A DNA stretch of 64,000 nt from Dehalococcoidia bacterium (GCA_963665745.1 OY762443.1:611616-675615), one strand, 5' to 3'; positions 7,929 through 53,157 are shown, counted from the first letter of the stretch. Made by a program: numbers and translations. Notes: generated by a model not told the origin, from the letters alone.

Positions 7929-8084
7929 TTATTCGTCATAGGCTCGACAAACGCCATCGGCGTCGATTCTGCATATGTATCGATGGTCGAAATAATTGAA
8001 CAGGAAAAGGTTTATAGCCAGCAGAATAAGAAACACGACAAGAGAGATTATCCTGATTCTACGCTTTGAATCGCCCTGACTCAT
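7929..8084 (-). CDS. 51-aa single-pass membrane peptide, ATGA-coupled to the upstream MTase-HNH gene
   Basis: MSQGDSKRRIRIISLVVFLILLAINLFLFNYFDHRYICRIDADGVCRAYDE. Its ATG (8084-8082) overlaps the MTase-HNH TGA (8083-8081). The stretch is AT-rich. No homology was recognised. Confidence 0.4.
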   Translation of the reverse strand: MSQGDSKRRIRIISLVVFLILLAINLFLFNYFDHRYICRIDADGVCRAYDE

Positions 8085-9517
8085 TCCTTCAACTGCGCTA
8101 GCAGATACTCCTGCGGCCTGTCGCCCTTGATGCGGTTGCAGTGCGAGCAGAGGAGTTGGAGATTGTCCATGTGATCGGTGCCGCCGCGTGAGCGCGGGAT
8201 TATGTGGTCGACCTCCATGATGCGGTAGGGGAACTCGGTCTTGCAACCGTTGCAGCGGCCTTCCTGCTCACCGAAGAGGACGTGCTTGTTCTTGCGGTAG
8301 TGGATCGGCGCGTCGATGTCCGTGCGTTGCGGAATGTCGGTGCGGGCGGTGACGAGCCGGTCGTGGAAGAGGTCGCCCATGAAGTCGCGGAGGCGCAGGT
8401 TCACCAACTCGACGGCCTTCGGGGACAGGTCGATGCCGACCCACTGGCGGCCCAGCTTTTCGGCGGCTACGCAGGCGGTGGCGCACCCGGCGAAGGGGTC
8501 GAGCACCATGTCTCCGGGGTTGCTGGACGCTGCAATGATGCGTTCGAGCAGGGCAAGTGGCTTTTGCGTCGGGTAGCCTATGTGCTCCTTTGACCGATTA
8601 TTGACGTTTTGAACGTCGCCGATGAAGTCGGAGGCGGCTTCACCTTTGGAAGCTGCAAGATACCGCTTCAGGCGTGGGTATCCTGATTCTGTCCAGTCGA
8701 TCAACCCGGCATTTGAAAGGGCGTCCAAACGCGCGTGAACGCTCGTCATTGAGGTGTATCCCGGAATCAGGTTATCCTCAATCCACTGGGCATAGTTGCC
8801 GGTCTTGGGAACACTCCAACATCGCCCGCTTTGGCCAGGATCGTATCCCTGCCATGGCTGACCGGACTCTCCACTCGACAATCCCGGCCCGGTCAGGTTA
8901 TCCACCCTGTAGCGTCCCTTTTCGTCCGTATACCGGTAGTCCCGAGCTAGATAGGTCTCTCCAAGTGGCAGGTATTGCGTGTGCCATGTGGCTCCATCGA
9001 AGGCGTAGAACAGCAAACGGTCTGATACCCTCGCGAACCGCTTGGCGTCGCTGTGTGAGCTAGTCCTCTTCCAATTGATCTCATTACGGAAATTCTGCCC
9101 GCTGAACACAGCGTCCATCAGCACCTTCAGGTACGCTCCTGCGGTATCGTCGCAGTGCAGGTAGATACTTCCCGTGTCCTTCAAGACGCGGCGCATTTCC
9201 AGCAACCGGACGGCCATCATGCAGAGGTAGGACTGCATCCCCTTACCGTGCGTCATACCTGCGGTCTCGATGGTGCGGTAGATGGCGGGATGCTCGTCGG
9301 CTATGAGGCCCATCCAGGCCACGTCGAGGTCGCTGAGCGTCCACGTGTCCTTGAACGCCGCGCCCGCCGCCCTGCTGCCCACAGGGGCCTCGTAGTTCTT
9401 GTTGGAGTTGAAGGGCGGGTCGAGGTAGATGAGGTCCACCGAGTCGGAGTTGAGGCCCCGGAGGATGTGGAGGTTGTCGCCCGTCCATATCGTCTTGTCC
9501 ACGAAGTTCGCTGGCAT
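8081..9517 (-). CDS. beta-class N6A/N4C DNA methyltransferase fused to a C-terminal HNH endonuclease (copy 1)
   Basis: ORF 8081..11218 trimmed to ATG 9517 (MPANFVDKTIW). Motif IV is DPPF near the N-terminus, and the AdoMet motif I VLDPFAGCATACVAAEKLGRQWVGIDL lies late, which is the beta permutation. The C-terminal HNH-Zn motif reads CNGC..VDHIIPRSRGGTDHMDNLQLLCSHCNRIKG. Everything upstream of 9517 in the track ORF is antisense to the IS110 gene. Confidence 0.85.
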   Translation of the reverse strand: MPANFVDKTIWTGDNLHILRGLNSDSVDLIYLDPPFNSNKNYEAPVGSRAAGAAFKDTWTLSDLDVAWMGLIADEHPAIYRTIETAGMTHGKGMQSYLCMMAVRLLEMRRVLKDTGSIYLHCDDTAGAYLKVLMDAVFSGQNFRNEINWKRTSSHSDAKRFARVSDRLLFYAFDGATWHTQYLPLGETYLARDYRYTDEKGRYRVDNLTGPGLSSGESGQPWQGYDPGQSGRCWSVPKTGNYAQWIEDNLIPGYTSMTSVHARLDALSNAGLIDWTESGYPRLKRYLAASKGEAASDFIGDVQNVNNRSKEHIGYPTQKPLALLERIIAASSNPGDMVLDPFAGCATACVAAEKLGRQWVGIDLSPKAVELVNLRLRDFMGDLFHDRLVTARTDIPQRTDIDAPIHYRKNKHVLFGEQEGRCNGCKTEFPYRIMEVDHIIPRSRGGTDHMDNLQLLCSHCNRIKGDRPQEYLLAQLKE

Positions 9518-9523
9518 GAAGGC

Positions 9524-9552
9524 ATGATACCTGAAATGCGAACAGATGTCTA
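9524..9552 (-). promoter_or_regulatory. candidate sigma70-type promoter of MTase-HNH copy 1, possibly giving a leaderless mRNA
   Basis: On the minus strand: TAGACA (9552-9547), a 17-nt spacer, then TATCAT (9529-9524). The -10 box ends 6 nt before ATG 9517. Confidence 0.35.
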
Positions 9553-11117
9553 GGATGTGAGGTTCACTGCCGAGGGCGCGGATGGCGCAGAGTGGGAGTG
9601 GATGCAAGGATTTTAGATTCCTCACTTCGCTACGCTGCGTTCGGAATATCTCATGAGGGTTGCCACCCTCACCACCTGGAATGAAAATGGGTATGCCCCG
9701 CTTGGTGACGAGTTCGGTTGTCAATGGTGCCGCGAGCCCGGTTCGGAATATGACACTGGCGACCTGAAGGCACCACCTATTGTCGCCCCAGACGGCTGGG
9801 AGCACGTGTAGCAATGTCAGTTTTGGAGAGGTTGCCCGCCAATCGGGAGTCTTGTTGGAGGGTTGAGCATGGAAGTTGTACACGAGCGGAGTTGTGGATT
9901 GGACGTCCATAAGCGGACTGTCGTGGCGTGTGTCATCACGCCGGAGGGTAAACGGACTCGCAGATTCAAGACGATGACCAAGGACGTGTTGAGCCTGGCG
10001 GATTGGCTGGGTGAGGTAGGTGTGACCCACGTGGCGATGGAGAGCACGGGGGTATACTGGCAGCCTTTGTACAATCTGCTGGAGGACGATTTCGAGGTGT
10101 GGGTGGTGAACGCTGCCCATATCAAGACGGTCCCTGGTCGCAAGACGGACATGAAGGACGCCGAGTGGATAGCCGACCTTCTGCGGCACGGACTGTTGCG
10201 ACCGAGCTTTGTCCCTGACCGTCCTCAGCGGGAGTTGCGAGAGTTGACTCGCCATCGCCGACAGTTGATTAGGCAGCGTGCGCAGGTGGTCAACCGCATT
10301 CAGAAGGTGTTGGAAGGGGGCAACATCAAGTTGAGTTCTGTGGCAACTGATGTCGTGGGTGCTTCGGGACGCGCAATGTTGAGGGCTATGATCGCTGGGG
10401 AAGACGATCCCGAGACGCTGGCGTCCATGGCCAGGGGGCGACTTCGTGACAAGCGCTTGCTGTTGGTCGATGCACTGGAAGGGTCGATGGGTTCCCACCA
10501 GCGGATGATGTTGGACAGCTATCTGCGACATCTCGACTTTTTGGAGCGTGAGATCGAGCGGATGAGTGAGGAGGTGGAGGATCGGACGCGCCCTTTTGAG
10601 GAGGTGATCGAGAGGATCGACGAGATTCCAGGAATGGGACGTCGAGGTGCCGAGCAAGTGGTGGCGGAGATCGGTACGGACATGAATCGGTTCCCTACGT
10701 CGCAGCACTTGGCATCGTGGGCGGGGATGTGTCCCGGCAATAACGAGAGCGCGGGCAAACGGATCGGCGGTCGCACCAGGCGCGCCAATCCGTGGCTGAA
10801 GTCGACGCTGGTGGAGGCAGCTTGGGCCTCTGTGAAGACTCGCGACACGTACCTGTCGGCCCAATACCGCCGCATAGCGGCTCGCAGGGGCAAAAAGCGG
10901 GCGATCATCGCCGTGGCTCACTCGATCCTGGTCATCATCTACCATATGCTCAGAGACGGCACTCGACACAGGGACCTTGGTGGGCAATACTTCGAAGAGC
11001 GCAACCACCAGGCAATAGTGCGCTATACCGTCCGACGGCTCAATCGGCTGGGATACGACGTGACTCTCGCAGCTGCCTGACAGGTCTATTTTCGTAGCAA
11101 TGACAGTAGTGGGGCTG
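9553..11117 (+). mobile_element. IS110-family insertion sequence (maximal bounds; exact termini unresolved)
   Basis: Contains the IS110 transposase CDS. It occupies the divergent intergenic region between the MTase-HNH and DUF1800 genes and is bounded by candidate native promoters at 9524-9552 and 11118-11147. No terminal inverted repeats were seen, as expected for IS110. Confidence 0.7.
9869..11080 (+). CDS. IS110-family DEDD transposase/recombinase
   Basis: MEVVHERSCGLDVHKRTVVACV..VAMESTGVYWQPLYNLL..VVNAAHIK..KTDMKDAEWIA is the DEDD N-domain. IPGMGRRGAEQVVAEIG..F....HLASWAGMCPGNNESAGKR is the Transposase_20 domain. ATG 9869 follows GGAGGG. Confidence 0.95.
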   Translation: MEVVHERSCGLDVHKRTVVACVITPEGKRTRRFKTMTKDVLSLADWLGEVGVTHVAMESTGVYWQPLYNLLEDDFEVWVVNAAHIKTVPGRKTDMKDAEWIADLLRHGLLRPSFVPDRPQRELRELTRHRRQLIRQRAQVVNRIQKVLEGGNIKLSSVATDVVGASGRAMLRAMIAGEDDPETLASMARGRLRDKRLLLVDALEGSMGSHQRMMLDSYLRHLDFLEREIERMSEEVEDRTRPFEEVIERIDEIPGMGRRGAEQVVAEIGTDMNRFPTSQHLASWAGMCPGNNESAGKRIGGRTRRANPWLKSTLVEAAWASVKTRDTYLSAQYRRIAARRGKKRAIIAVAHSILVIIYHMLRDGTRHRDLGGQYFEERNHQAIVRYTVRRLNRLGYDVTLAAA

Positions 11118-11147
11118 TTGGCGCGTTGGCGTGAATCTCGGTATAAT
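11118..11147 (+). promoter_or_regulatory. candidate sigma70-type promoter upstream of the DUF1800 gene
   Basis: TTGGCG (11118-11123), an 18-nt spacer, then TATAAT (11142-11147). Confidence 0.4.
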
Positions 11148-11182
11148 CTCTCCCGGTCGATCCGCTGAACATGGGGGTTTGC

Positions 11183-12589
11183 ATGGCTCATTCGGATGAC
11201 ATTGCACTGATGGCGCACCTTATGCGCCGGGCAGGGTTCGGCGCACGCCGTGAGGAGTTGGAGGCGCGGGCTGCGAAGGGCTACGAGGCGACTGTCGAGG
11301 AACTCCTTTCACCCGAGCATCAGGCCCCTGTGGACATCTACGACCTCTACCGCTACCAGCCCTGGGCGTGGAAGCCGGGCACCATCTACGGCATGGGCCA
11401 CGCCGCGTGGGTCTACCGGATGCTCAACACGAACGCTCCCTTGCAGGAGAAGATGACCGTCTTCTGGCATGGAATCTTCGCCACCGGCGTCTCCAAGGTC
11501 GATCACTGGGACGAGATCATGGACATGATCGATTCGTTCCGTGACAACGGCATGGGCAAGTTCCGCGACATAGTTCTGAGCGTCGCCCGAAGCCCCGCGA
11601 TGATCTACTGGCTCGACAACAACGAGAACCTCAACGGACGCATCAACGAGAACTGGGGCCGCGAGCTTCTCGAACTCTTCACGATGGGCGTCACGAACTA
11701 CACCGAGGCCGATGTGTACGAGTGCTCCCGCGCCTTCACCGGCTGGACGATGGCCCCGAAGCTGCCCCGGTTCCCCATGGGCCGCTTCGACTGGGAGTTC
11801 GAGTACCGCGACGAGATTCACGACCACACCGACAAGAGTTTTCTCGGACACGTGGGCGACTTCGACGGCGAGGAGATCGTCGATATCGTCCTGCGGCAGC
11901 CCGCCACCGCGCGGTTCATCGCGCGACATCTGTACACCTTCTTCGTGGCCGACGAGGCCCAGGTGCCCGCTTGGTCGGTGACGCCTCCACGCGATCCCGA
12001 CGCTATCGACCAACTCGTCGAGAAGCTGTACTGCACGGACTACGACATCCGGGAGACCCTGCGCTTCCTCTTCAACTCCGACTTCTTCAAGGAAGCCCAC
12101 TTCGCCAAGGTCAAGAGTCCCGTCGACGTGATGATCGGAACTCTTCGGCTCGTCGGCGGCTCGGAGTTCCCCGGGCCGGGCATTGGCAACCTCTCGCGAC
12201 AGGTCTCGTACATGGGCCAGGAGTTGCTCAATCCACCCTCCGTCGAGGGCTGGCACACGGGGCCTGAGTGGATCAACAGCGGCTCGATAATGACCCGCAC
12301 CAACTTCTTCACCGACATGATCAGCGACGCAGACCGTCCGGGCATCCAGGCTATCATAGGCGCTCTGCGAGAGCGGGGCGCAATGTCGCCCGAAGAGTTC
12401 GTCGACACGTGTCTCGACCTGCTGGGGCCGCTTGACGTCGATGCGGCATCGAAGCAGGAACTCGTCGACCACGCCTCCGAAGGCGGCCCGCTTGAATGGG
12501 GGCCGAACGGCGGCTATGACTCGACCGTCGTGCGCATAACGGAAATGCTCCAACTCATCGTAGCGCTGCGGGACTACCAGTTCGCATGA
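11183..12589 (+). CDS. DUF1800 family protein
   Basis: MAHSDDIALMAHLMRRAGFGARREELE.. is the typical DUF1800 opening, and the gene is paired with a downstream DUF1501 gene as is usual. An alternative start is ATG 11171. Confidence 0.8.
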   Translation: MAHSDDIALMAHLMRRAGFGARREELEARAAKGYEATVEELLSPEHQAPVDIYDLYRYQPWAWKPGTIYGMGHAAWVYRMLNTNAPLQEKMTVFWHGIFATGVSKVDHWDEIMDMIDSFRDNGMGKFRDIVLSVARSPAMIYWLDNNENLNGRINENWGRELLELFTMGVTNYTEADVYECSRAFTGWTMAPKLPRFPMGRFDWEFEYRDEIHDHTDKSFLGHVGDFDGEEIVDIVLRQPATARFIARHLYTFFVADEAQVPAWSVTPPRDPDAIDQLVEKLYCTDYDIRETLRFLFNSDFFKEAHFAKVKSPVDVMIGTLRLVGGSEFPGPGIGNLSRQVSYMGQELLNPPSVEGWHTGPEWINSGSIMTRTNFFTDMISDADRPGIQAIIGALRERGAMSPEEFVDTCLDLLGPLDVDAASKQELVDHASEGGPLEWGPNGGYDSTVVRITEMLQLIVALRDYQFA

Positions 12590-12642
12590 GTCTTCGGCGG
12601 CCTCGCGCCGATGAGTGAGGGATATATCGGGGAGAAACCACC

Positions 12643-13773
12643 ATGACCACCACCAACAAAGAACCCGTCCTCGTCGTACTCCAGATGACGGGCGGGAACG
12701 ACTACCTCAACACCGTCGTCCCCTACACCGACGGGATGTACTACGACTACCGGCCTACGGTCGGCGTCGCGGAAGAGGACGTCATTCCCATCGACTCCAC
12801 CGTCGGGCTGCATCCCGAGATGCGACCGTTCAAGGACGCCTACGACGAGGGCGACCTCGCCATCATTCACGGCGTGGGATACGCCAACTCCCCGCGTTCC
12901 CACTTCCGGTCGATGGATATCTGGCACACCTGCGAGCCGGACACCCTCGGCACGGAGGGATGGCTCGGCAAGGTCGTCAGGGAGCTTGATCCCAACAAGG
13001 AGAACGTCGTCACGGCGGTTAGCATGGGGCCGAGTATGTTCCGCGCCCTCTCCGTGCCCGGCGTTCCCGTCGCCTGCGTCGACAACCTCGACAGCTACGG
13101 CCTGATGACCAACGTCGAGGAGGCGAAGCAGCGCGAGCGGCTCCTCGAACGGTACAAGCGACTCTACGGTCCTGCCGTCGGCTCAGGCCCGGTGATGGAC
13201 TTCCTCGGCCAGACCGGACTCGACGCCCTCGCGGGGGCCGACATTCTGAAGATCGCCCCTCAGCGCTACGAGTCGAGCGTGGAGTACGCCGAAACGTCCA
13301 TCGGACGCAAGCTGCGGAGCATCGCCCAGATACACATGGCCGACCTCGGCACGCGAGTCTTCTACGTCGACCAGGGCAGCTACGACAGCCACTCCAATCA
13401 GGCGGGGATGCACGACAAGCTCCTCGCCGACATGTCGCGCGGCGTCCAGGACTTCTTCGACGACCTCAGAGCGCACGACGCTGCGGACAACGTCATCATG
13501 CTCATCTTCTCCGAGTTCGGTCGCCGCACGTACGACAACGGCTCCGGCACCGACCACGGCGCTGCCGGTGCGGTCTTCATGCTCGGCGACGCGGTCGCGG
13601 GCGGACAGTACAGCACGTACCCGTCCATCAAGCGCGAGGACCTCGAACAGGGCGACCCCGTACCCAACCTCGACTTCCGCAGCGTCTACAGCACCATCAT
13701 CGAAGACTGGCTTCATCTCGACGCCAAACCCATCGTCGGCGGCACATTCGAGAAGCCCCGCTTCCTAAACTAA
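12643..13773 (+). CDS. DUF1501 family (sulfatase-like fold) protein, lacking a Tat leader
   Basis: VLQMTGGNDYLN..HGVGY.NSPRSHF.S...W..GTDHG are DUF1501 hallmarks. There is no RRxFL twin-arginine leader at the N-terminus. Confidence 0.8.
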   Translation: MTTTNKEPVLVVLQMTGGNDYLNTVVPYTDGMYYDYRPTVGVAEEDVIPIDSTVGLHPEMRPFKDAYDEGDLAIIHGVGYANSPRSHFRSMDIWHTCEPDTLGTEGWLGKVVRELDPNKENVVTAVSMGPSMFRALSVPGVPVACVDNLDSYGLMTNVEEAKQRERLLERYKRLYGPAVGSGPVMDFLGQTGLDALAGADILKIAPQRYESSVEYAETSIGRKLRSIAQIHMADLGTRVFYVDQGSYDSHSNQAGMHDKLLADMSRGVQDFFDDLRAHDAADNVIMLIFSEFGRRTYDNGSGTDHGAAGAVFMLGDAVAGGQYSTYPSIKREDLEQGDPVPNLDFRSVYSTIIEDWLHLDAKPIVGGTFEKPRFLN

Positions 13774-14672
13774 TGAACGAAGAGCAGATGGCTGATTATT
13801 CCAAGAGGGATGTTCCATCCCACAAAGAACTTCACAATCCACTGCTGAGGGCAATTCATGGTCTCGGCGGAAGTGCTTCCAACGCTGAAATTGTAGACCG
13901 GGTTATCGAAGACATGCGTCTACCAGACAGTGTCGTAGAAATACCCCACAAGTCCGGTCGTATGTCGCGACTAGAGTACAGAATCGGTTGGGTAAAGACA
14001 TATCTCAAAAAATACGGGCTCCTCGACAACTCGACGAGAGGTGTGTGGTCTCTCACCGCCTTGGGGCATCATACCGAGAGTATCGACCCTGACGAAGTTG
14101 TAAAGCAGGTTGTCAAACGTGACCGGGCGGAGAGGCAACGCAGGGCGGAAGAAGTGGATCTGCCAGAAGGCGAAGATATCTCAGCCGGCGACTCTTCGGA
14201 AGACATAGCAACATGGCGTGAGGAGTTGCTGGATATTCTCCTCAATATGCAACCGGGCGCATTTGAAAGGTTATGCCAAAGGATCTTACGCGAATCGGAC
14301 TTTATCGAGGTCAATGTCACAGGGAAATCGGGGGACGGGGGAATTGATGGGAATGGAATAATTCGGCTTGGAGGACTCATCAGCTTTCCGGTATTGTTTC
14401 AGTGCAAGCGGTATAGCGGAAGCGTTAGCGCAAACGCCGTTAGAGACTTCCGCGGCGCAATGATAGGGCGAGCCGATAAGGGACTCATTATAACGACGGG
14501 TACTTTTACAAGGAACGCTCACAAGGAAGCGACAAGAGACGGAGCGCCTCCAATTGATTTGATTGATGGCAAGTTGCTAATTGATAAGCTGAAGGAACTT
14601 AAACTCGGTGTACGCGTTAAGACCGTCGAGGTTGTAGAAGTAGATAATGAGTGGGAAGGTTTCGCAGCATAA
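13773..14672 (+). CDS. mrr: Mrr-like type IV (modification-dependent) restriction endonuclease
   Basis: The N-terminal Mrr_N winged helix reads HNPLLRAIHGLGGSASNAEIVDRV..RIGWVKTYLKKYGLL. The catalytic domain reads FERLCQRIL..GDGGIDG..FQCKRY..V..VRDF.GA....ADKGLIITTGTFT. The start ATG overlaps the DUF1501 stop (TAATG). The gene looks AT-richer than its flanks. Confidence 0.85.
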   Translation: MNEEQMADYSKRDVPSHKELHNPLLRAIHGLGGSASNAEIVDRVIEDMRLPDSVVEIPHKSGRMSRLEYRIGWVKTYLKKYGLLDNSTRGVWSLTALGHHTESIDPDEVVKQVVKRDRAERQRRAEEVDLPEGEDISAGDSSEDIATWREELLDILLNMQPGAFERLCQRILRESDFIEVNVTGKSGDGGIDGNGIIRLGGLISFPVLFQCKRYSGSVSANAVRDFRGAMIGRADKGLIITTGTFTRNAHKEATRDGAPPIDLIDGKLLIDKLKELKLGVRVKTVEVVEVDNEWEGFAA

Positions 14673-14732
14673 TGCCAGTTCCCTTCGACTCCACTGCCAT
14701 GCTTCTGCGTACGCTTAATCGATCCCCACACT

Positions 14733-14749
14733 GTCATTCCCCGCGAAAG
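14733..14749. repeat. REP family 2 half-copy (GTCATTCCCCGCGAAAG)
   Basis: Reverse-orientation half of the GGATTCCCGC-nnnn-GCGGGAATGAC element seen at five other sites. Confidence 0.5.
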
Positions 14750-14766
14750 GAGACTTTTAGCTAACC

Positions 14767-14803
14767 CCCTCTCCCTTGAGGGAGAGGGCTGGGGTGAGGG
14801 TGA
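14767..14803. repeat. REP family 1 hairpin (CCCTCTCCC-TTGA-GGGAGAGGG) with a CTGGGGTGAGGGTGA tail
   Basis: A 9-bp stem at 14767-14775 and 14780-14788. The same unit occurs at 48656, 49315 and 54175. Confidence 0.8.
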
Positions 14804-14807
14804 AAGA

Positions 14808-14834
14808 CCCAGCACCTAGAACCCAGCACCCACC
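14808..14834. repeat. REP family 5 (CCCAGCACCTAGAACCCAGCACCCACC)
   Basis: An internal direct repeat of CCCAGCACC. A reverse-complement relative lies at 25196-25215, and a related string at 51551-51576. It abuts the NHL gene ATG. Confidence 0.6.
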
Positions 14835-15869
14835 ATGCTCACCCAATCCGTAGCAGGCAGAACATACGACTACGACTACAACGTCGGCTCCCGGAACATG
14901 GGAATCGCGATCAGTGTCGCGTTCGGGGCCGGCGACGTCGTGTACGTCCTGAGTCGCCAGCACGAGCAGCTGGCCGACGTGCCCTGGAACAAGACCGCCG
15001 TCCACGCCAAGGTCGGCAAGTACGAGGTTCCCGACACGCCGGGCAGCGAGGAGCTGCTCTTCGAGTTCGGCAAGTACGGCGACGGTGACGGCGAGTTGGT
15101 CTGGCCGACGGGCATCGCCACCGACTCCGACGAGAACGTCTACGTCAGCGACGAGTGGCTCAATCGCATCTCCGCATATAACCCCGACGGCGAGTTGCTC
15201 AGCACGTGGGGTCGAGCCGGAACAGGCAGCGGTGAGTTCAACGGCGCCGCCGGAATCGCCTTCGGGCCGGATGAGACGCTCTACGTCGTCGATTCGCTCA
15301 ACCATCGCGTTCAGAAGCTCTCCAAGGACGGTACCTTCATCGGACAGTTCGGGAGCATCGGTGCAGGCGAGGGGCAGTTCAACTCACCCTGGGGAGTCAC
15401 GACCGATGCCGACGGCTTCGTTTACGTGGCCGACCACAAGAACCACCGCGTGCAGAAGCTCGATGTTGATGGGAGCTACGTCATGTCATTCGGCTCGTTC
15501 GGCGCGGGCAACGGCCAGTTGAACCGCCCCTCCGATATCGCCGTAGACCCCGAGGGCGATGTCTACGTCTGCGACTGGGCCAACAGCCGGGTGCAGATAT
15601 TCGACGCGACCGGCAAGTTCATCACGAGTCTCATAGGCGACGCCGTGGAGATGGCGAAGTGGCACAAGCAGCAGGTCGATTCAAACGCCGACGTGCTCAA
15701 GGCGCGCCGCCGCGTGAAGACGCTCGAACCGGAATGGCGCTTCGCCCTGCCCGCGGGCGTCGACTACGACCCCGCCAAGAACCGCATCGTGGTCTCCGAC
15801 TCACAGCGCTGGCGTTTCCAGATGTACCGCAAGGTGTCGGACTACATCGAGCCGCAGTACAACCTCTAG
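14835..15869 (+). CDS. NHL-repeat beta-propeller protein
   Basis: Six repeats of the ..G.G.F..P.G.A.D..G..YV.D..N.R.Q type (NHRVQKL, NSRVQIF). Confidence 0.85.
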   Translation: MLTQSVAGRTYDYDYNVGSRNMGIAISVAFGAGDVVYVLSRQHEQLADVPWNKTAVHAKVGKYEVPDTPGSEELLFEFGKYGDGDGELVWPTGIATDSDENVYVSDEWLNRISAYNPDGELLSTWGRAGTGSGEFNGAAGIAFGPDETLYVVDSLNHRVQKLSKDGTFIGQFGSIGAGEGQFNSPWGVTTDADGFVYVADHKNHRVQKLDVDGSYVMSFGSFGAGNGQLNRPSDIAVDPEGDVYVCDWANSRVQIFDATGKFITSLIGDAVEMAKWHKQQVDSNADVLKARRRVKTLEPEWRFALPAGVDYDPAKNRIVVSDSQRWRFQMYRKVSDYIEPQYNL

Positions 15870-45950: not shown

Positions 45951-45973
45951 GCCTTCCTGCGGCCCCGAAAATC

Positions 45974-46003
45974 TTGACTGCGTGTAGGGGCGATCCCTAC
46001 AAT
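45974..46003 (+). promoter_or_regulatory. candidate sigma70-type promoter of the yceD-rpmF-fabD-nusB-acpP cluster
   Basis: TTGACT (45974-45979), an 18-nt spacer, then TACAAT (45998-46003). Confidence 0.45.
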
Positions 46004-46055
46004 ATGTCCTTCGGGCGACGTGGGCCTATCAGATTTCGCAGGGGTCGGTGTCGTT

Positions 46056-46595
46056 ATGCACTTTAACGTTTCGCAGCTTGTTCGTGAGACCAGCGGCTCC
46101 ACCAGGGAGCACGAGGTCGAAGACCGTGTCACGTTTCGCGGCGACCTGATCGAGGTCAGGGGCGGCGTCCGGTTTGTCAGGACGGACAAGGGCGTGTGGG
46201 TGACGGCCCTGCTGAACACACAGGTGGAGTCCGAGTGCGGACGGTGCCTGGATCGCTACGTCCAGACCGTCGATATCAAGGTCGATGAGGAGGCGCTACC
46301 CCGGCTCGACCCCGTCACCGGCGTCCGATACGTCGACAACCTCGACCCGGAAGAGAACCTCGTAATCGACGAGGACAACATCCTCGACCTGACCGAGACG
46401 GCGCGCCAGTACATCTCACTCGGCCTGCCGATGAGTCCGCTGTGCCGTACGGACTGCGCGGGCATCTGCGCGGGGTGCGGCGTCAACCGGAACCATGAGC
46501 CCTGCACGTGCGTCCGCGTTCAGCGAGACAGTCGATGGGGGCCGCTCCTGGATGCCTTTCCGTCAGTCGAAACAATGAACCTGAGTAAGAACTAA
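46056..46595 (+). CDS. yceD: DUF177 / YceD-family protein
   Basis: Trimmed to ATG 46056. C-x-R-C at ESECGRCLD, and the C-terminal CRTDCAGICAGCGVN. It has the classical position upstream of rpmF. Confidence 0.8.
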   Translation: MHFNVSQLVRETSGSTREHEVEDRVTFRGDLIEVRGGVRFVRTDKGVWVTALLNTQVESECGRCLDRYVQTVDIKVDEEALPRLDPVTGVRYVDNLDPEENLVIDEDNILDLTETARQYISLGLPMSPLCRTDCAGICAGCGVNRNHEPCTCVRVQRDSRWGPLLDAFPSVETMNLSKN

Positions 46596-46677
46596 GAACA
46601 CCTTGACCGCATACCGCTCGACGGGCGACCCTGTGTAGGGCACGTTGAACGGGAGCGCGCGGAAGGACTGAACAACA

Positions 46678-46878
46678 ATGCCAGGCGGACCAGTACCAAA
46701 GAAAAAGCACTCGCGCTCGCGCCGCGGAAAGCGGGCAGCGCACCAGTTCCTCGCCGTCCCGACCCTCGTCGACTGCCCCGAATGCCCGGCCAAGATGAGG
46801 CCGCATCACGTGTGTGTCACTTGCGGGTACTACAACGGGCGCGAGATCGTGCCGAGCGAAGAGATCGAAGTCGAGTAG
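46678..46878 (+). CDS. rpmF: 50S ribosomal protein L32
   Basis: MPGGPVPKKKHSRSRRGKRAAH... plus the Zn-ribbon CPEC..CVTCGYY. Confidence 0.95.
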   Translation: MPGGPVPKKKHSRSRRGKRAAHQFLAVPTLVDCPECPAKMRPHHVCVTCGYYNGREIVPSEEIEVE

Positions 46879-46888
46879 GAGACGACGA

Positions 46889-47848
46889 TTGACGTTGCGG
46901 TTTTCTCCTCCCCCCAAAGGGACCGATACGGCGTTCCTGTTTCCCGGACAGGGGACGCAGAGCGTCGGCATGGGCGAGGAGCTGTACAACAACTCCTCGG
47001 CGGCGCGGGCCGTCTTCCACGAGGTGGACATGGCCCTCGGCCGGCCGCTGACGAGGCTGCTGTTCGAGGGACCTGACGACACGCTTCGCCAGACGGTGAA
47101 TGCGCAGCCGGCGATCATGTCGGTGAGTCTGGCGACGATGCGGGCCATGCAGGACTACCTCGGCGCGGATGCTACGCCGCGTCCGGCTCTCGTGGCGGGC
47201 CACAGCCTCGGCGAGTACACGGCGCTCGCGGTCGCGGGCGTACTGGACATCGGCGAGACGGCGTGGCTCGTGCAGGAGCGCGGCAGGCTGATGCAGGAGG
47301 CATGCGAGAAGCAGTCCGGCAGCATGGCGGCGGTCATGGGGCTGGACGCCATGGCGCTGGAGCAGATATGCCGCGAGACCGGGACGGTCATCTCGACCGT
47401 CAACACGCCGGACCAGATCGTCATTGCCGGGGAGCGTCGCGCACTCGCGAATGCGCTCGACCTGGCGAACGCTCGTGGCGCGAAGAAGGCCGTGCCCCTG
47501 CGAGTCGCGGGGGCGTTTCACTCCCCGCTCATGGAGCCTGCGCAGGCAGGTCTCATCGACGCTGTGGAGAGCCTGAAATTCAAGGACCCGTCCATCCCCA
47601 TCGTCGCCAACTGCACGGCCAAGCCCGTGACCAAGGGCGAGGACGTCAAGCGAGAGCTGATCGCGGGAATATGCAACTGCGTCCACTGGAGCCGCTCGGT
47701 GGACTACATGATGGGCAACGGCGTGAACCGCTTCATCGAGGTCGGGCCGGGCCGGGTGCTGAGCGGGATGGTCAAGCGCATCAACCGGCGGGCGGACGTG
47801 CAGGCCGTGGGCGACTGGGACTCGATCGTCAAGCTCAGCCGCAACTGA
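46889..47848 (+). CDS. fabD: malonyl-CoA:ACP transacylase
   Basis: FLFPGQGTQSVGMG, the active-site GHSLGEYTAL, and VAGAFHSPLM. The TTG start at 46889, 7 nt after AGGAG, was chosen to avoid overlapping rpmF. Confidence 0.9.
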   Translation: MTLRFSPPPKGTDTAFLFPGQGTQSVGMGEELYNNSSAARAVFHEVDMALGRPLTRLLFEGPDDTLRQTVNAQPAIMSVSLATMRAMQDYLGADATPRPALVAGHSLGEYTALAVAGVLDIGETAWLVQERGRLMQEACEKQSGSMAAVMGLDAMALEQICRETGTVISTVNTPDQIVIAGERRALANALDLANARGAKKAVPLRVAGAFHSPLMEPAQAGLIDAVESLKFKDPSIPIVANCTAKPVTKGEDVKRELIAGICNCVHWSRSVDYMMGNGVNRFIEVGPGRVLSGMVKRINRRADVQAVGDWDSIVKLSRN

Positions 47849-47871
47849 TACCCCCTCCCCCACCCACCGCA

Positions 47872-48345
47872 GTGACCTCCACCACCACACTGAACCGACC
47901 GAGCAAGGCCGTCACCCGGCGGAAGGCCCGCGTCATCGCCGTTCAGGTGCTGTACGAGGTGGACGGGTCGGATCACGAGGTGGGGAGCGCGTTGGCAGCG
48001 CGGCTCGACGATGCCGCCGTTACGCCCGACGCGGATGCGTTCACGCGGAAACTCGTGCATGGGGTACTTGCCAACAGGCGGGAAATCGATAAGATAATAG
48101 CCACGCACGCGCCGAACTGGCCTATCGAGCAGATGGCGATGGTAGACCGCAACATCCTGCGGGTCGCCATCTACGAAATCCTGATGGCCGGAGAGACGCC
48201 GCCGAAGGTCGCTATCAACGAGGCGGTGGAACTTGGTAAGATATACGGGGCCGACAGATCGCCGATGTTCGTCAACGGCGTACTCGGCGCGCTGATGCAG
48301 AACAGAGAACACGACGATACGTCGAACACCGCAACGGACGAATAG
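47872..48345 (+). CDS. nusB: transcription antitermination factor NusB
   Basis: [14 protein letters not shown]....., [35 protein letters not shown]......FVNGVLG. The GTG 47872 start is uncertain. Confidence 0.85.
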
Positions 48346-48359
48346 GGAGGAACACAACT

Positions 48360-48617
48360 ATGGCAAGTCTCTTGGAACGAGTTCAGGAAGTCGTCGCCGA
48401 CAAGCTGAGCGTTGACACCGAGGAGGTTACTCCCGACGCGTCATTCACCGAAGACCTGAACGCCGACTCGCTGGACCTGGTCGAGCTCATCATGGCCTTC
48501 GAGGAGGAGTTCGGCGACGACGACAACCCGCTCGAAATCTCCGACGAGGACGCCGAGTCCATCACCACCGTCCAGGCGGCCATCGACTACCTGCAGGCCC
48601 ACGGCGCGGGCGAGTAG
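48360..48617 (+). CDS. acpP: acyl carrier protein
   Basis: 85 aa, with the phosphopantetheine site [19 protein letters not shown]. Confidence 0.95.
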
Positions 48618-48655
48618 CGGCGGTTCCACATGATATTGGGAGCTTAGTCGAAGCG

Positions 48656-48691
48656 CCCTCACCCCAACCCTCTCCCGCGAACGGGAGAGGG
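48656..48691. repeat. REP family 1 (CCCTCACCCCAA + CCCTCTCCC-GCGAAC-GGGAGAGGG)
   Basis: Stem at 48668-48676 and 48683-48691. It lies 39 nt after the acpP stop and may act as a terminator. Confidence 0.8.
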
Positions 48692-48743
48692 GGTATGTTG
48701 ACTACACGGCAGTTATTGATACCCGGCACGGCTCCGCGCGGCC

Positions 48744-48844
48744 TTCGACAGGCTCAGGCCGAACGGGGCGTAAGGTTGCTCAGGCCGAACGGGGCGTAAG
48801 GTTGCTCAGGGCGCATGGGGCGTAAGGCTGCTCGGGGCGAACGG
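48744..48844. repeat. REP family 3 core followed by a 26-bp tandem array (about 3.5 copies)
   Basis: TTCGACAGG, then CTCAGGCCGAACGGGGCGTAAGGTTG twice (48753-48778 and 48779-48804), a variant CTCAGGGCGCATGGGGCGTAAGGCTG (48805-48830), and a partial CTCGGGGCGAACGG (48831-48844). The copies are contiguous with no spacers. Confidence 0.9.
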
Positions 48845-48969
48845 AATTGTTTTAGACACATCCTCTACAAACCCTCGTGGGTGATCTGCGTGTATCTTGC
48901 TGCGGCGGGCTTTCCCAGGGAAATGCCCGGGAGCTACGAGAACTCGACTGCTGATCCAGCGGAGACCAG

Positions 48970-49040
48970 ATGCAACATTGTGGCAACATTCGTAGGTGAG
49001 ATCTTCAAGAATTGTTGCATGGTGTTGCATTTTGTTGCAT
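48970..49040. promoter_or_regulatory. repeated module C: convergent ATGCAACA decamer repeats
   Basis: On the minus strand: ATGCAACAAA, ATGCAACACC and ATGCAACAAT at 49040-49011. On the plus strand: ATGCAACATTGTGGCAACATT at 48970-48990. The phasing and flank (TTCCCTCGTT) match module B. Confidence 0.45.
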
Positions 49041-49116
49041 TTCCCTCGTTCTAGAGGAATGCGGGTGTCACACTATGAGCTAGGTTCGTAGGAGAGATTT
49101 CTCAAAAAGCGTTGAT

Positions 49117-49221
49117 TTTGTGACGTCCTGTGACATTTTGGGACATTCCCCTCGTTATCGTAAAGTTGCTCGGCCAGTGACCGCACATACCTATTGTGGG
49201 ACATGCGTTCTTGTCTGTCAA
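49117..49221 (-). promoter_or_regulatory. repeated module B: near-consensus promoter plus three phased 10-bp direct repeats
   Basis: On the minus strand: TTGACA (49221-49216), a 17-nt spacer, then CACAAT (49198-49193). Downstream lie ATGTCCCAAA, ATGTCACAGG and ACGTCACAAA at 49146-49117. Confidence 0.5.
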
Positions 49222-49314
49222 ACCGGAGTGCGACGGAGTAACTGTTCAGTCTTCGTGAGGTGAATCGCGAAGATCCCCTCTCTGTATCTCTCCCCCGGCG
49301 GGGGCTGACAGGGG

Positions 49315-49349
49315 CCCTCACCCCAGCCCTCTCCCACGACGGGAGAGGG
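49315..49349. repeat. REP family 1 (CCCTCACCCCAG + CCCTCTCCC-ACGAC-GGGAGAGGG)
   Basis: Stem at 49327-49335 and 49341-49349. A degenerate relative lies at about 49286-49310. Confidence 0.8.
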
Positions 49350-49388
49350 GGGAGGAGAATTCCTGTATATCTCATCGACTCTGAACAG

Positions 49389-49865
49389 TTAGGCGGTCGA
49401 GTCTTGGATGCTGGGTTCCGCCTTGTTCCTTCGACGCAGGACGATGTAGGTGACGACCGTCGAGGTTATCAGGCTGAGGAGGCCGCCGATGAGGATGTCG
49501 ATGGGCACGAGGACGCCGGGCCAGGTCTTGAACATCAGGAAGATCGGCACGATGTAGGTGGCGTAGGCGGCGCAGCCGAGGACGAAGCTGTTCTTGACCG
49601 CCTTGATGAGGCTGTTCTCCTTCAGGGCAGGCTCGATGGCGAGGTAGCTGTTGCCGAGCGCGATGAGCCCGAGGAACGCGAGCAGGGCGAGGAGCTGCTC
49701 GACTCCCCACATGTCCATCTTCCTGCCGAACTCTTCGCGGAGCACGTCGTTGCCGCTGGCCTCGTAGAGGCTCTCATACATCCCCACCGCGATGGGCGAG
49801 AGGTTCCACCCCACGTCGATGACCGTGTATACAACGAATGCCGCTAGGAATCTGAGGAAGTGCAT
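49389..49865 (-). CDS. integral membrane protein (DUF2177-like)
   Basis: 158 aa with 4 hydrophobic segments. The family assignment is from memory of the N-terminal F..F..Y..ID..W pattern. Confidence 0.55.
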   Translation of the reverse strand: MHFLRFLAAFVVYTVIDVGWNLSPIAVGMYESLYEASGNDVLREEFGRKMDMWGVEQLLALLAFLGLIALGNSYLAIEPALKENSLIKAVKNSFVLGCAAYATYIVPIFLMFKTWPGVLVPIDILIGGLLSLITSTVVTYIVLRRRNKAEPSIQDSTA

Positions 49866-49919
49866 GTTGACCTCGTGGTGTGGGGTTTGGGCTATGGGGG
49901 AATTTGTATCATAGCACGT

Positions 49920-51293
49920 CTACCAAGCCAAGTCCCCTGGCGTCACATTCATCATCCTTCCGGCCTTTTGCACTTCCATCCGGCGGCGTCCCAGCTTCAG
50001 CAACTCTTCTCCTCCAGAACCCCTTAGTGCATCTCCAGGTATGCCCAAAGCCTGCAAGATTGCCACAGCGATTTGCAATGGTCCGGGAGTCACGTAGGGA
50101 TTTAGTGTGCCGGGTGGTTCTTTGGTCTCCGGCGCTATCACAAACGTATCAAGCGAAGTTCCGTCGGGAGTGATGATCTCGTCATCCTGAACTATTGGAA
50201 GCCCAAAAGCCGAGATGTGAGAAAGATAGTTTGGTAAATCAAGGAACGGAATCGTGCGCCAGACGTTTTCAATGTAAGCCTTTATATAGAACGGACCTCT
50301 CACATTTGCATGATCGACCACCATACGGTGACGCTTAATGATCCCTTCACAGGCGTCTAGCATCATATTAAGGTCTAGAATCTTGACCGATTCAAGACCT
50401 CCATTATTGAACATGGAAATGAACTCCTGGCCCGTAGAATAAATATTCCACACCTCATCGTATTCATTTGTCGACAATACTGGTATGGGAAGGGTTACAA
50501 ACGAATGACATTGACGAGAGAATTCCCATGTAAGTACACGATTATAAGGATTATTACCTGCCGTCTGTCTCGCTACGTAACCATCATGCTTGGAGAAAAT
50601 GTTGTCGAAAGGGACTGAGTTTTCTTTCATGACTTCACTGAAGTCAGTCAATTTCCCATCGTACCAATGGCCCATAACTTCATAGGGATCCGATATTATG
50701 CTGAAATGAATAAAAGGCTGATCTTCCTCGCCTTTTGAGACCGTTGGACTCTTCAGTATGCGATCCTCTAATCGCCGACGGGCCTGCTCGCCGCGCCTAG
50801 ACAAAATGTCAAAGGTAACTCGATCTGTTATTGGCCTAGGATCAGAGGAGTCTCCAATACGCACGTATATGCGGCCATCGTTATGAACATAGGGAGTATC
50901 AGGACCTTGAGGTATTTCGGCTGCGACAATTGAGCGCCCTTGCTGTAGGCCTATCGATTCAATTGGCCCTTCGAATACTCGGGTGATGTAGAACACGTGG
51001 GGATGTAGAAGGTCTTTCGCTGCGTTTCTCAAGGCTTCAAGAACTGAGGGCACATCAGAATTTGCAATGCCTGGAAAGCACTCTGCAACATTCTGTTTGG
51101 AACCACTCTTGATTCCAAGGAAATACAATCCGCCGTATTGATTAGCAAAGGAAGATAAGCTTTTTGCCAGAGCACGTGGCTTGATGATTTCGGACTTATA
51201 TTCAACGTACCAGCCTTCATAAACGTCTCTAAGTTCCGTCAAATCAGTTGGAGAAAGATCTACAAGGTTCTCGTCGAAAGGTGTATGTCTCAT
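49920..51293 (-). CDS. AlbA_2 / Schlafen-like (divergent AAA) DNA-binding domain protein with an unassigned ~300-aa C-terminal region
   Basis: N-terminus: EGWYVEYKSEI..ALAKSLSSFANQYGGLYFLGIKSG....IVAAEIPQGPDTPYVHNDGRIYVRIGDSS. The gene is clearly AT-richer than its neighbours by eye. Confidence 0.7.
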   Translation of the reverse strand: MRHTPFDENLVDLSPTDLTELRDVYEGWYVEYKSEIIKPRALAKSLSSFANQYGGLYFLGIKSGSKQNVAECFPGIANSDVPSVLEALRNAAKDLLHPHVFYITRVFEGPIESIGLQQGRSIVAAEIPQGPDTPYVHNDGRIYVRIGDSSDPRPITDRVTFDILSRRGEQARRRLEDRILKSPTVSKGEEDQPFIHFSIISDPYEVMGHWYDGKLTDFSEVMKENSVPFDNIFSKHDGYVARQTAGNNPYNRVLTWEFSRQCHSFVTLPIPVLSTNEYDEVWNIYSTGQEFISMFNNGGLESVKILDLNMMLDACEGIIKRHRMVVDHANVRGPFYIKAYIENVWRTIPFLDLPNYLSHISAFGLPIVQDDEIITPDGTSLDTFVIAPETKEPPGTLNPYVTPGPLQIAVAILQALGIPGDALRGSGGEELLKLGRRRMEVQKAGRMMNVTPGDLAW

Positions 51294-51576
51294 CCTTTTC
51301 CTCGTAAGATTGATTCGTTAGGATAGTGATCTATCTATACTGTACAGTTAGCATTATCACCTTCGGAATAGAAAAAAGAAGCTCCAGGCATTGGAAGCAC
51401 AGTACACATAGGTTCGGCTACAGGGATACTTCCCGGTCACTAGGGTTCTGAAGAACATTGCAGTTGTAATTCCGCGAAGTTTCCACGTTCTATGACCATA
51501 ATGCTATAGATACTCCACTCTAATTGCAAATAGACAGAAATTCCCCCTCACCCCACCACCCACACGCTCCCAGCAC

Positions 51577-51680
51577 CGGCTTGGTGACGATCACGTTGTT
51601 GCCACCTGCGAGTTATCGAGGTGTCCTTCGGTCCCCACTACCAAAGCGAGCATGTCGGCGTCGTCCAGCGGTCGTCCGAG
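51577..51680 (-). pseudogene. decayed, internally deleted remnant of a homoserine kinase (thrB) gene
   Basis: The reverse translation LGRPLDDADMLALVVGTEGHLDNSQVATT* aligns with ThrB LGKPLDNARMLALAARIEGHPDNSAAALYGG. One frame over, NVIVTKP matches the ThrB C-terminus DVIVTKP. About 150 codons between the two blocks are missing. Confidence 0.65.
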
Positions 51681-51792
51681 TTGACATGAGAGACTGGGAG
51701 GTTGTACTGTTCGGGACGCGAACAAATATCCTATTCACAGCAGCACGTTGTTGTTGTACAACACTCACCACACCGAGCAACGGGTGATTGAC

Positions 51793-53157
51793 ATGGTGGC
51801 ACCGAACTTTGTCGATAAGACGATATGGACGGGGGATAACCTCGATATTCTCCGGGGGATGAACTCCGAGACGGTAGACCTCATCTACTTGGACCCGCCG
51901 TTCAATTCGAACCGCGACTACGCGGCTCCGGTCGGAAGCAAGGCGGCGGGCGCGGCCTTCAAAGACACGTGGACGCTCAGCGACCTCGACGTGGCGTGGA
52001 TGGGCCTCATCGCCGATGAGCATCCGGCGATCTATCGCACCATTGAGGCCGCCGGCCTCACGCACGGCAGGGGGATGCAGTCCTATCTCTGCATGATGGC
52101 CGTCCGGTTGCTGGAAATGCGCCGCGTCTTGAAGGACACCGGAAGCATCTACCTTCACTGTGATCCGACGGCTTCTCATTATCTTAAATTACTCATGGAT
52201 GCGGTGTTTGGAGCAACGCAATTCCAAAACGAAATCACTTGGCAACGGACAACGGCGCATAACGATTCGGTTCGTTACGGTAGGAACTCCGACACGATAC
52301 TGTTTTACTCGAATCGCGATCGTTGGACGTGGAATATTCAGTACCAGCCCCACGACGATTCTTATAAGGCCAGATTTCGGCATCGTGATCCCGACGGTAG
52401 AGCGTGGGCCGATGACAACCTCACCGCCAAAGGGCTATCGGGCGGAGGTTACGAATATGAATATAAGGGTGTGACGTCACTGTGGCGTGTGCCATTGAAG
52501 AGAATGCGAGAATTGGATGACGAGGGGAGGCTTCATTTCACAAGTCGAGGCGGCATTAGGGTGAAGAGATACCTCGACGAGGTTAAGGGCAGGCCACTAC
52601 AAGCAGTTTGGGCTGACATCTACGCTATCAACTCCCAAGCGAAGGAACGGATAGGCTACCCCACGCAAAAGCCCCTCGCCCTCCTTGAACGCATCATCGC
52701 CGCGTCCAGCAACCCCGGCGACACGGTGCTCGACCCGTTCTGTGGATGTGCTACGGCGTGCATAGCGGCTGACAAATTGGGCAGGCAATGGGTAGGAATC
52801 GACCTATCTTCGAAGGCCGTGGAACTGGTCAATATGCGCCTTCGGGAGTATATGGGAGACCTATTCCACGATCGGCTTGTTACGGCTCGGACGGATATTC
52901 CCAAGCGGACGGATATTGACGCTCCAATTCACTACCGGAAGAACAAGCACGTCTTGTTCGGGCAGCAGGAAGGCCGTTGCGCGGGCTGTCGCATGGACTT
53001 CCCGTTCAAGGCGTTCGAGGTAGACCACGTGATACCGCGCTCCAAAGGCGGGACGGATCACATCGACAATCTCCAGTTGCTCTGCTCGCACTGCAATCGC
53101 ATCAAGGGGAACCGCGACCAGGCCTATCTCATGGCGCAGTTGTCGGATATGTCGTAG
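51793..53157 (+). CDS. beta-class N6A/N4C DNA methyltransferase fused to a C-terminal HNH endonuclease (copy 2)
   Basis: ORF 51748..53157 trimmed to ATG 51793 (MVAPNFVDKTIW). DPPF, VLDPFCGCATACIAADKLGRQWVGIDL, and the HNH motif CAGC..VDHVIPRSKGGTDHIDNLQLLCSHCNRIKG are present. It is a paralogue of 8081-9517. Confidence 0.9.
   Translation: MVAPNFVDKTIWTGDNLDILRGMNSETVDLIYLDPPFNSNRDYAAPVGSKAAGAAFKDTWTLSDLDVAWMGLIADEHPAIYRTIEAAGLTHGRGMQSYLCMMAVRLLEMRRVLKDTGSIYLHCDPTASHYLKLLMDAVFGATQFQNEITWQRTTAHNDSVRYGRNSDTILFYSNRDRWTWNIQYQPHDDSYKARFRHRDPDGRAWADDNLTAKGLSGGGYEYEYKGVTSLWRVPLKRMRELDDEGRLHFTSRGGIRVKRYLDEVKGRPLQAVWADIYAINSQAKERIGYPTQKPLALLERIIAASSNPGDTVLDPFCGCATACIAADKLGRQWVGIDLSSKAVELVNMRLREYMGDLFHDRLVTARTDIPKRTDIDAPIHYRKNKHVLFGQQEGRCAGCRMDFPFKAFEVDHVIPRSKGGTDHIDNLQLLCSHCNRIKGNRDQAYLMAQLSDMS

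Follow-up and report, generated by a model that had tools for sequence, protein, structure and literature searches.

How two genes of one bacterial chromosome came to be nearly alike at both ends and so different in the middle is the question raised by a stretch of 64,000 nucleotides (nt) from a Dehalococcoidia bacterium (GCA_963665745.1 OY762443.1:611616-675615), referred to below, at its full length, as the window. The two genes, copy 1 and copy 2, lie about 42 kb apart in inverted orientation, and each encodes a DNA methylase fused to an HNH nuclease domain. An earlier note on this DNA proposed that one scaffold carries two specificities here through swapping of the target-recognition domain (TRD), and that the conserved blocks could invert the segment between them. 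The account favoured here, and considered probable, is that the copies are two distinct members of a very large gene family, in which each gene is a stand-alone methylase-HNH fusion with an exchangeable TRD module. The ends are alike through a shared scaffold lineage and strong purifying selection, and the centres differ in that each gene carries a different, old TRD type.

Like ends and unlike centres in one protein plan

Two open reading frames (ORFs) had been read at this locus on opposite strands, and both are present. Their parts, with lengths in amino acids (aa), are as follows; GC is the guanine-plus-cytosine content and GC3 the same at third codon positions.

8081-9517, minus strand: copy 1, methylase-HNH fusion gene with TRD type 1, ORF of 478 aa, Pfam matches
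51793-53157, plus strand: copy 2, methylase-HNH fusion gene with TRD type 0, ORF of 454 aa, Pfam matches
9101-9517, minus strand: conserved N-terminal (N) block of copy 1, aa 1-139, with catalytic motif IV DPPF, ~90% aa identity to copy 2
8588-9100, minus strand: variable module of copy 1, aa 140-310, motif VIII region and TRD, delimited by breakpoint fits, identity and GC3
8318-8587, minus strand: C-terminal methylase block of copy 1, aa 311-400, with motif X PTQKP, motif I DPFAGCAT and linker, 87% aa identity to copy 2
8081-8317, minus strand: HNH nuclease domain of copy 1, aa 401-478, and stop codon, Pfam HNH match
52213-52644, plus strand: variable module of copy 2, aa 141-284, motif VIII region and TRD, delimited by breakpoint fits and GC3
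9150-9516, minus strand: inverted-repeat arm N, copy 1 side, 367 nt by BLASTN, 85.8% identical to 51797-52163, containing a 53-nt exact run
8090-8590, minus strand: inverted-repeat arm C, copy 1 side, 503 nt by BLASTN, 76.5% identical to 52642-53142, longest exact run 17 nt

The methylase family PF01555 (N6_N4_Mtase) is matched with 138.8 bits (3.3e-40) by copy 1 and 150.8 bits (7e-44) by copy 2 (Pfam cut-off 26.7), the match being interrupted by the central insert, and PF01844 (HNH) with 54.5 bits (1.3e-14; copy 1 residues 422-467) and 57.1 bits (2e-15), respectively (Pfam cut-off 21.4). The methylase motifs come in the order DPPF (motif IV, aa 33-36), variable region, PTQKP (motif X, 316-320) and DPFAGCAT (motif I, 340-347), and are invariant in alignment A1. 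In the HNH domain both the catalytic D-H...N...N residues and the Cys4 zinc site are retained: C422, C425, D437, H438, N452, C457, C460 and N461 are invariant in alignments A1-A3, and all eight are intact in 296 of the 306 relatives. Between orthologues the ratio of nonsynonymous to synonymous substitutions per site (dN/dS) is low in each block, TRD and HNH included, and for the centre within one TRD type it amounts to 0.04-0.16. An exact look-up of the copy 1 protein gave no record.

The centre is the target-recognition region of a beta-class methylase, as the earlier note had read it: motif IV stands first and motifs X and I last, and the best structural matches are Type III Mod proteins with a central TRD. 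The AlphaFold models are of moderate confidence (predicted local distance difference test, pLDDT, 74.9 and 77.6), with the central domain well predicted. In Foldseek, the top matches of the copy 1 model were EcoP15I Mod (4zcf, E 3.9e-16) and a Helicobacter pylori Type III Mod (6k0w), and further matches included CcrM, M.MboIIA (1g60), M.RsrI and M.BceJIV; a sequence search of the PDB agrees, with M.MboIIA among the best. DPPF, instead of SPPY/F, is the form of motif IV that points to N6-adenine methylation, and so suggests methylation at adenine N6 by both proteins.

Compared with each other, the two proteins are 66% identical over their full length (BLASTP, reported E-value 0.0), and BLASTN aligns the two arms only, leaving the centres without DNA-level alignment. 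Measured in sliding windows, the proteins are 0.8-1.0 identical over the end regions and 0.25-0.5 identical over the centre. A fit with two breakpoints confines the divergent part to copy 1 aa 139-310, in near agreement with the conserved first 130 and last 170 aa that had been noted before. Block by block, identity is 0.89 in the N block, 0.87 in the C-terminal methylase block and 0.79 in the HNH domain. The centres had been called barely alignable; they are strongly diverged, but at ~31% identity and with family-wide invariant positions kept (for example, W234 and K284-R285-Y286-L287) they can be aligned, and they are old homologues of one fold. The copy 2 module does not have a ~25-aa insertion that is present in the copy 1 type. 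The long identical nucleotide run that had caught the eye measures 53 nt (52087-52139 on the plus strand, 9174-9226 as reverse complement), and the N arm holds a second exact run of 32 nt. The former exceeds the expectation under random placement of mismatches (P ~0.008), and the copy 1 orthologue in the sister-strain contig L002 has 4 synonymous differences within it.

Nei-Gojobori estimates for each block of copy 1 against copy 2 add a second kind of unevenness. The N block (aa 1-122) has dS 0.64 and dN 0.06, the C-terminal methylase block (aa 306-400) dS ~3.5 and dN 0.08, and the HNH domain (aa 401-478) dS 1.03 and dN 0.21; in the centre (aa 172-305) dS is saturated and dN is 0.74. In copy 1, GC3 is 0.64 in the centre (aa 131-308) and 0.86-0.89 in the ends, and in copy 2, 0.56 (aa 132-282) and 0.74-0.79. 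As the N and C blocks are similar in GC3, codon bias does not explain their difference in dS, and at least the N block has a younger common ancestor than the others. The likeness of the C-terminal methylase block, in turn, is the work of purifying selection alone, with no recent exchange. Divergence along the two genes is thus not uniform, either in sliding identity or at synonymous sites.

Exchange of the central module across the family

Relatives clustered at 90% identity amount to at least 8000 clusters for each copy, nearly all with the same methylase plus HNH architecture. Blocks were compared in a sample of ~310 sequences, made up of 239 relatives, the two window copies and ~69 genes from genome loci. 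Across 47,271 pairs the identity of the ends and that of the centre are nearly uncoupled (r = 0.22). Ends more than 90% identical are joined to centres less than 50% identical in 469 pairs, and in 89 pairs the ends are at least 95% identical with centres again below 50%; P0043 and P0131, for example, share 98, 29, 97 and 99% of the N block, centre, C-terminal methylase block and HNH domain. The converse occurs too, with centres at 0.75-0.82 and ends below 0.62 (for example, a centre at 0.82 with an HNH domain at 0.49). Single-linkage clustering at 60% sorts the centres of the sample into at least 56 types, with 49 members in the type of copy 1 and 67 in that of copy 2.

Breakpoints fitted to 12 protein pairs fall at copy 1 aa 134-154 and 305-314, where they adjoin the conserved segments YLKxLMDAVFG and KERxGYPTQKP. 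Uncoupled histories of ends and centres, taken together with recurrent breakpoints, require repeated exchange of a ~170-aa module between scaffolds, and TRD cassette exchange is thus a trait of the whole family. The protein plan is a conserved N catalytic block, the exchangeable TRD module, a conserved block binding S-adenosylmethionine and a C-terminal HNH nuclease, and exchange may proceed by recombination at the DNA encoding the two conserved segments. No conserved DNA junction was found around the variable module in 75 genes, along which synonymous identity is flat at 0.35-0.45.

The same data bear on a reading without exchange, in which a single old divergence met unequal constraint, the motifs being held and the TRD left free to drift. 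It would fit the 87% protein identity of the C-terminal methylase block despite a dS of ~3.5, and also the flat family-wide synonymous identity. The N-block dS of 0.64 is, however, far below that of the other blocks at similar GC3, and the centre is conserved within its TRD type rather than free to drift. Some centres are more conserved than the ends that they are joined to (centre 0.82, HNH domain 0.49), and constraint alone cannot give both that pattern and the 89 pairs of nearly identical ends. This reading is therefore improbable, and exchange of TRD modules between scaffolds is preferred.

The family ranges over metagenome-assembled genomes (MAGs) of many phyla, including one archaeon. 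In a list of genome matches ordered by similarity to the window, the nearest are MAGs named Dehalococcoidia, Chloroflexota, Poribacteria, Latescibacterota, Binatia, Acidobacteriota, Proteobacteria, Cyanobacteria and Nitrosopumilus, and the taxon names suggest that the hosts belong to host-associated marine communities. In sponge metagenomes both PF01555 and PF01844 are reportedly enriched (PMC12284385). Several genomes among the nearest matches have two copies; in the paralogue pairs of three other genomes scaffold identity is 0.12-0.71. A Longimicrobiales MAG (CBDBPR010000004.1) carries a 560-aa member twice on one contig, ~1.1 Mb apart (loci L083 and L084), with the compared blocks 100% identical and an IS1595-type transposase gene directly upstream of one copy. 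This looks like a recent duplication, unlike the divergent paralogue pairs elsewhere.

Probable origin of the two copies and the order of the 42-kb segment

Whether the two copies were made from one another in place, or came separately, is judged here from their relatives outside the window and from the sequences next to them, of which the following are needed here (IS, insertion sequence).

9524-9552, minus strand: promoter-like box TAGACA-17 nt-TATCAT, ending 7 nt before the copy 1 start codon, 10/12 in a consensus scan, function predicted
9553-11098, plus strand: IS110-family insertion with transposase ORF 9863-11080, Pfam DEDD_Tnp_IS110 and Transposase_20, missing from L002
49870-51751, minus strand: variable slot upstream of copy 2, with a Schlafen/AlbA_2-domain gene at 49920-51293 (minus, 457 aa, GC 0.47; Pfam SLFN_AlbA_2, 1.8e-13)
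51780-53075, plus strand: tract nearly identical to the sister-strain contig L001, 2 mismatches in ~1.3 kb, ~99.8%

The scaffold of copy 1 is nearest to P0046 (0.94) and the P0196-P0213 group (0.93), and that of copy 2 to P0193 (0.93) and P0030 (0.92), all of them with other TRD types. The copies share ~0.86 of their scaffold, less than either does with these outside relatives. The 35-nt box upstream of copy 1 is conserved in L002, L004 and L003, the last of which has a TRD of the copy 2 type; copy 2 and its orthologue in L001 differ from copy 1 both in upstream sequence and at the N-terminus. Both copies stand as gene-sized islets of low GC among housekeeping genes (0.60 for copy 1 and 0.56 for copy 2 vs ~0.63). 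Because each has nearer relatives outside, a different upstream region and an islet of its own, separate acquisition of two family members is the most likely origin of the pair.

The size of the moving unit is indicated by two further comparisons. Contig L004 shares with copy 1 a stretch that opens 35 nt ahead of the start codon and closes with the stop codon, 87% identical at the DNA level and set between unrelated flanks. Around copy 2 the window is ~5% diverged from the sister strain (background identity ~94-95%), and the ~99.8% identity of the tract at 51780-53075 against that background indicates a recent gene-sized exchange or sweep. The copies may thus have arrived separately as gene-sized units, a 35-nt promoter-like box travelling with one of them, and their inverted orientation would be incidental. 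A phage origin was considered and rejected: relatives in IMG/VR are 40-49% identical and nearly all without HNH.

The TRD swapping of the earlier note consequently stands as a property of the family, in which ends and centres are uncoupled and breakpoints recur, and falls as a local event. A local duplicate pair with a TRD swapped in place does not agree with 49 and 67 own-type relatives elsewhere, with ends nearer to proteins of other TRD types (0.93-0.94 vs ~0.86) or with the differing upstream regions. Local duplication followed by fast TRD divergence under diversifying selection, with no recombination, is also very unlikely. In its favour, the window scaffolds are more alike (0.89, 0.87 and 0.79 for the three blocks) than the paralogue pairs of the three other genomes, and the centres are homologous, ~31% identical and with shared invariant positions. 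One date cannot fit a saturated centre, a nearly saturated C-terminal methylase block and an N block at dS 0.64, however, and each TRD type has dozens of conserved relatives elsewhere that are under purifying selection. Each scaffold is, besides, nearer to outside proteins than to its partner, and neither the upstream regions nor the N-termini agree.

The earlier note had further proposed that the conserved blocks, as inverted repeats, could flip the 42-kb segment, and such a switch might reshuffle both genes as in phase-variable specificity systems. Several features are in keeping with this: the genes are inverted, with their 5' ends inward and the genes pointing outward; the N arm contains exact runs of 53 and 32 nt, the longer of which, with its low P value and the synonymous differences of the L002 orthologue, could reflect a short ectopic conversion tract; and an IS110-family recombinase gene adjoins copy 1. 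The sister-strain contigs are, however, collinear with the window at both junctions. L002 matches window 297-21945 except for the IS110 element (9553-11098) and a segment with an Mrr gene (13775-14806), and L001 matches 49187-49869 and 51752-63385. An inverted arrangement was seen at neither junction, which is weak negative evidence given that one sister strain was compared.

The arms themselves also speak against a working switch. They are only 85.8% and 76.5% identical, the dS of 0.64 in the N block argues against ongoing homogenisation, and in a comparison of four sequences, sites at which copy 1 equals copy 2 and sites at which the L002 orthologue equals copy 2 occur in about equal numbers, as expected under ordinary divergence. 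Crossing over in the N arm would swap promoters and ~120 near-identical codons only, and in the C arm the positions of the N and TRD parts only; as either exchanges near-equivalent parts, no new specificity would arise. The IS110 element, which is missing from L002, is the only recombinase nearby, and neither near-identical inverted repeats nor a dedicated site-specific recombinase was found at this pair. With collinear sister contigs, arms of 86% and 77% and a specificity unchanged by crossover, the proposal is not upheld: inversion is possible in principle, yet unsupported and of little functional consequence, and an invertible-segment switch is given hardly any credence.

Two related candidates were rejected. 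Recent ectopic gene conversion between the copies is not needed, the four-sequence site patterns fitting ordinary divergence and only the 53-nt run being mildly unusual. Protein P0002, whose N block is nearer to copy 2, was considered as an inversion product; its contig, L004, has unrelated flanks, and its upstream box is of the copy 1 type. The GC skew changes sign at window ~7000-8000, near copy 1, being negative to the left (about -0.1 to -0.2) and positive to the right; as copy 2 shows no counterpart, the change is not the trace of a 42-kb inversion.

Other features of the window concern the surroundings of the two genes. The IS110-family element lies directly upstream of the -35-like hexamer of copy 1, and the ~310 nt from its left boundary to the transposase ORF (9553-9862) are non-coding, with no Rfam match. 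At the other end of copy 1, a 51-aa ORF with a hydrophobic segment (IISLVVFLILLAINLFLF; 7929-8084, minus) overlaps the copy 1 stop codon with its start (ATGA); in L002 the methylase and 51-aa ORFs are joined into a 529-aa protein, P0001, through insertion of 1 nt close to where the methylase gene ends. The variable slot upstream of copy 2 has its breakpoint ~41 nt before the methylase ATG, and in L001 the same slot (694-2197) is occupied by an unrelated 354-aa gene with no Pfam match, which ends 5 nt before the methylase start. For this gene and the AlbA_2 gene of the window, Pfam, PADLOC and NCBIfam gave no defence assignment beyond AlbA_2, and neither recurs in the examined loci.

A Mrr-type restriction gene (Type IV, modification-dependent; Mrr_N and Mrr_cat) lies at 13773-14672, in the segment 13775-14806 that is missing from L002; the segment coincides with a dip in GC and ends at a hairpin repeat, and the same genome has two predicted adenine methylases. 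The hairpin repeat (CCCTCACCCCAGCCCTCTCCC-loop-GGGAGAGGG) is intergenic and occurs in the window at 14762-14810, 48652-48695, 49315-49351 and 54164-54213, and in the unrelated contig L004 at 1441-1489 and 4622-4675. It has no Rfam match and looks like an element of the repetitive extragenic palindromic (REP) type. In the window as a whole Rfam gave no RNA match and ARAGORN no tRNA.

Predicted activity and comparison with known systems

Neighbouring genes and nuclease variants bear on what the fusion protein may do. Copy 1 is flanked by IS110, DUF1800 and a small ORF of DNA-binding type, and copy 2 by the AlbA_2 gene and homoserine kinase; no res-like or separate nuclease gene was found adjoining either. 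When the ORFs on either side of the gene were clustered for 72 related loci, no partner gene recurred except IS1595-type transposases and a few pairs. The copy 1 module has relatives (1473 clusters at 50% identity, E up to 0.001) in three kinds of protein, with a C-terminal HNH domain, with Mrr_cat in one case, and in some cases without a nuclease. The Mrr_cat protein, P0255 (574 aa), is a beta-class methylase with a C-terminal Mrr_cat / PD-(D/E)XK nuclease in the position of HNH; P0262 and P0266 end in C-terminal regions of 170-200 aa with no Pfam match.

Each window protein would methylate adenine (N6) at its own sequence motif, and the same TRD would direct HNH cleavage of unmethylated DNA, giving a one-protein restriction-modification enzyme and, in this cell, two independent specificities. 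Such a restriction function is nearly an even bet. Its main functional rival is a homing-type role, in which the HNH domain serves gene mobility: a selfish cassette would cut sites that do not have it and be copied in by repair, with the methylase protecting carriers. The mobile unit is indeed gene-sized, as in L004, where homology is confined to the gene and the 35 nt in front of its start, and the near-identical 1.3-kb tract of the sister strain is bounded by gene ends. The family also occupies many unrelated chromosomal sites across phyla, and homing endonucleases of the free-standing HNH type are established (Pingoud et al. review, PMC4081073). Against this, neither a conserved insertion site nor a target duplication was found, the IS elements that often lie nearby could account for the mobility, and phage-borne relatives are almost all without HNH. 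Replacement of HNH by the restriction-type nuclease Mrr_cat at the same position, together with the conserved HNH active site, favours an effector role, and homing is regarded as unlikely.

Several points weigh against the combined account of module exchange and restriction. The protein sample is biased, consisting of best matches to the two queries, and centre identities below ~40% depend on weak alignment. Part of the conserved ends is explained without recombination, given the dS of ~3.5 in the C-terminal methylase block, and with flat synonymous identity the exchange at motif-coding DNA is read from protein breakpoints only. The AlphaFold models reach a pLDDT of only 75 and 78, with the HNH region poorly modelled. 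One chain that methylates and cuts through one TRD, moreover, requires a control mechanism that is invisible in sequence. The wider picture is accordingly offered as a tentative one: the family may be an uncharacterised class of compact (~460 aa) one-protein enzymes with a Mod-like methylase, a plug-in TRD and an interchangeable nuclease, spreading as promoter plus ORF across phyla and into archaea in marine host-associated communities, and with specificities that can be stacked in one cell.

Among known systems, the Type I hsdS inversion systems have inverted repeats inside specificity-determining genes, as is the case here. Phase-variable hsdS systems combine repeats that are nearly identical with a site-specific recombinase next to them, silent partial genes and the presence of both orientations within one population; no such feature was found at this pair. 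The Type IIC/IIG enzymes (MmeI, BpuSI and the Thermus family TaqII/TspGWI) likewise unite methylase, TRD and nuclease in one polypeptide encoded by a stand-alone gene (PMC3185434, PMC3384240). In both those enzymes and, by prediction, the present family, a change of TRD would alter both activities together. Type IIC/IIG enzymes have an N-terminal PD-(D/E)XK nuclease, a gamma-class methylase and ~900-1100 aa. This layout is not shared by the window proteins, which have a beta-class methylase, a C-terminal HNH domain and only 454-478 aa, and whose activity is predicted.

The MboII system also pairs a beta-class N6-adenine methylase (M.MboIIA) with an HNH-type restriction nuclease, R.MboII being listed as an HNH enzyme (PMC4081073). 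There the two are separate proteins, each with its own DNA recognition, whereas in the window proteins they form one chain and presumably use a single TRD. Literature searches turned up no description of a methylase-HNH fusion, and a review of Type II enzymes lists HNH restriction enzymes only as separate proteins (PMC4081073).

The closest parallel for the movement of modules is the Type III mod genes. In Helicobacter pylori their TRDs move between alleles and between non-orthologous genes, the recombination taking place in the DNA that codes for conserved methylase motifs (Furuta et al., 2014, PMC3983042), and Type III mod TRDs fall into discrete homology groups (PMC3983042). Type III Mod proteins (EcoP15I, Helicobacter pylori, and the Neisseria/Haemophilus mod alleles) are likewise beta-class enzymes whose conserved N and C parts enclose a central TRD, and the family described here has the same mode of TRD movement and a Mod-like fold. 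It differs in that no res gene stands by either copy or recurs in the 72 loci, no helicase or ATPase is present, and HNH is fused to the C-terminus of the methylase; as there is no Res, the methylase-HNH family is not a Type III system. A phase-variation tract of simple sequence was not seen either, with no search aimed at one. The window pair is an ordinary instance of this known evolutionary mode, TRD movement, and it is the family, large and apparently uncharacterised, more than the pair that merits attention. It marks gene flow across phyla and may explain part of the sponge-metagenome enrichment of both domains. If both activities do act through one exchangeable TRD, its members would be among the smallest self-contained restriction-modification enzymes and would form a natural library of swappable specificity modules, useful in the search for new restriction or nicking specificities.

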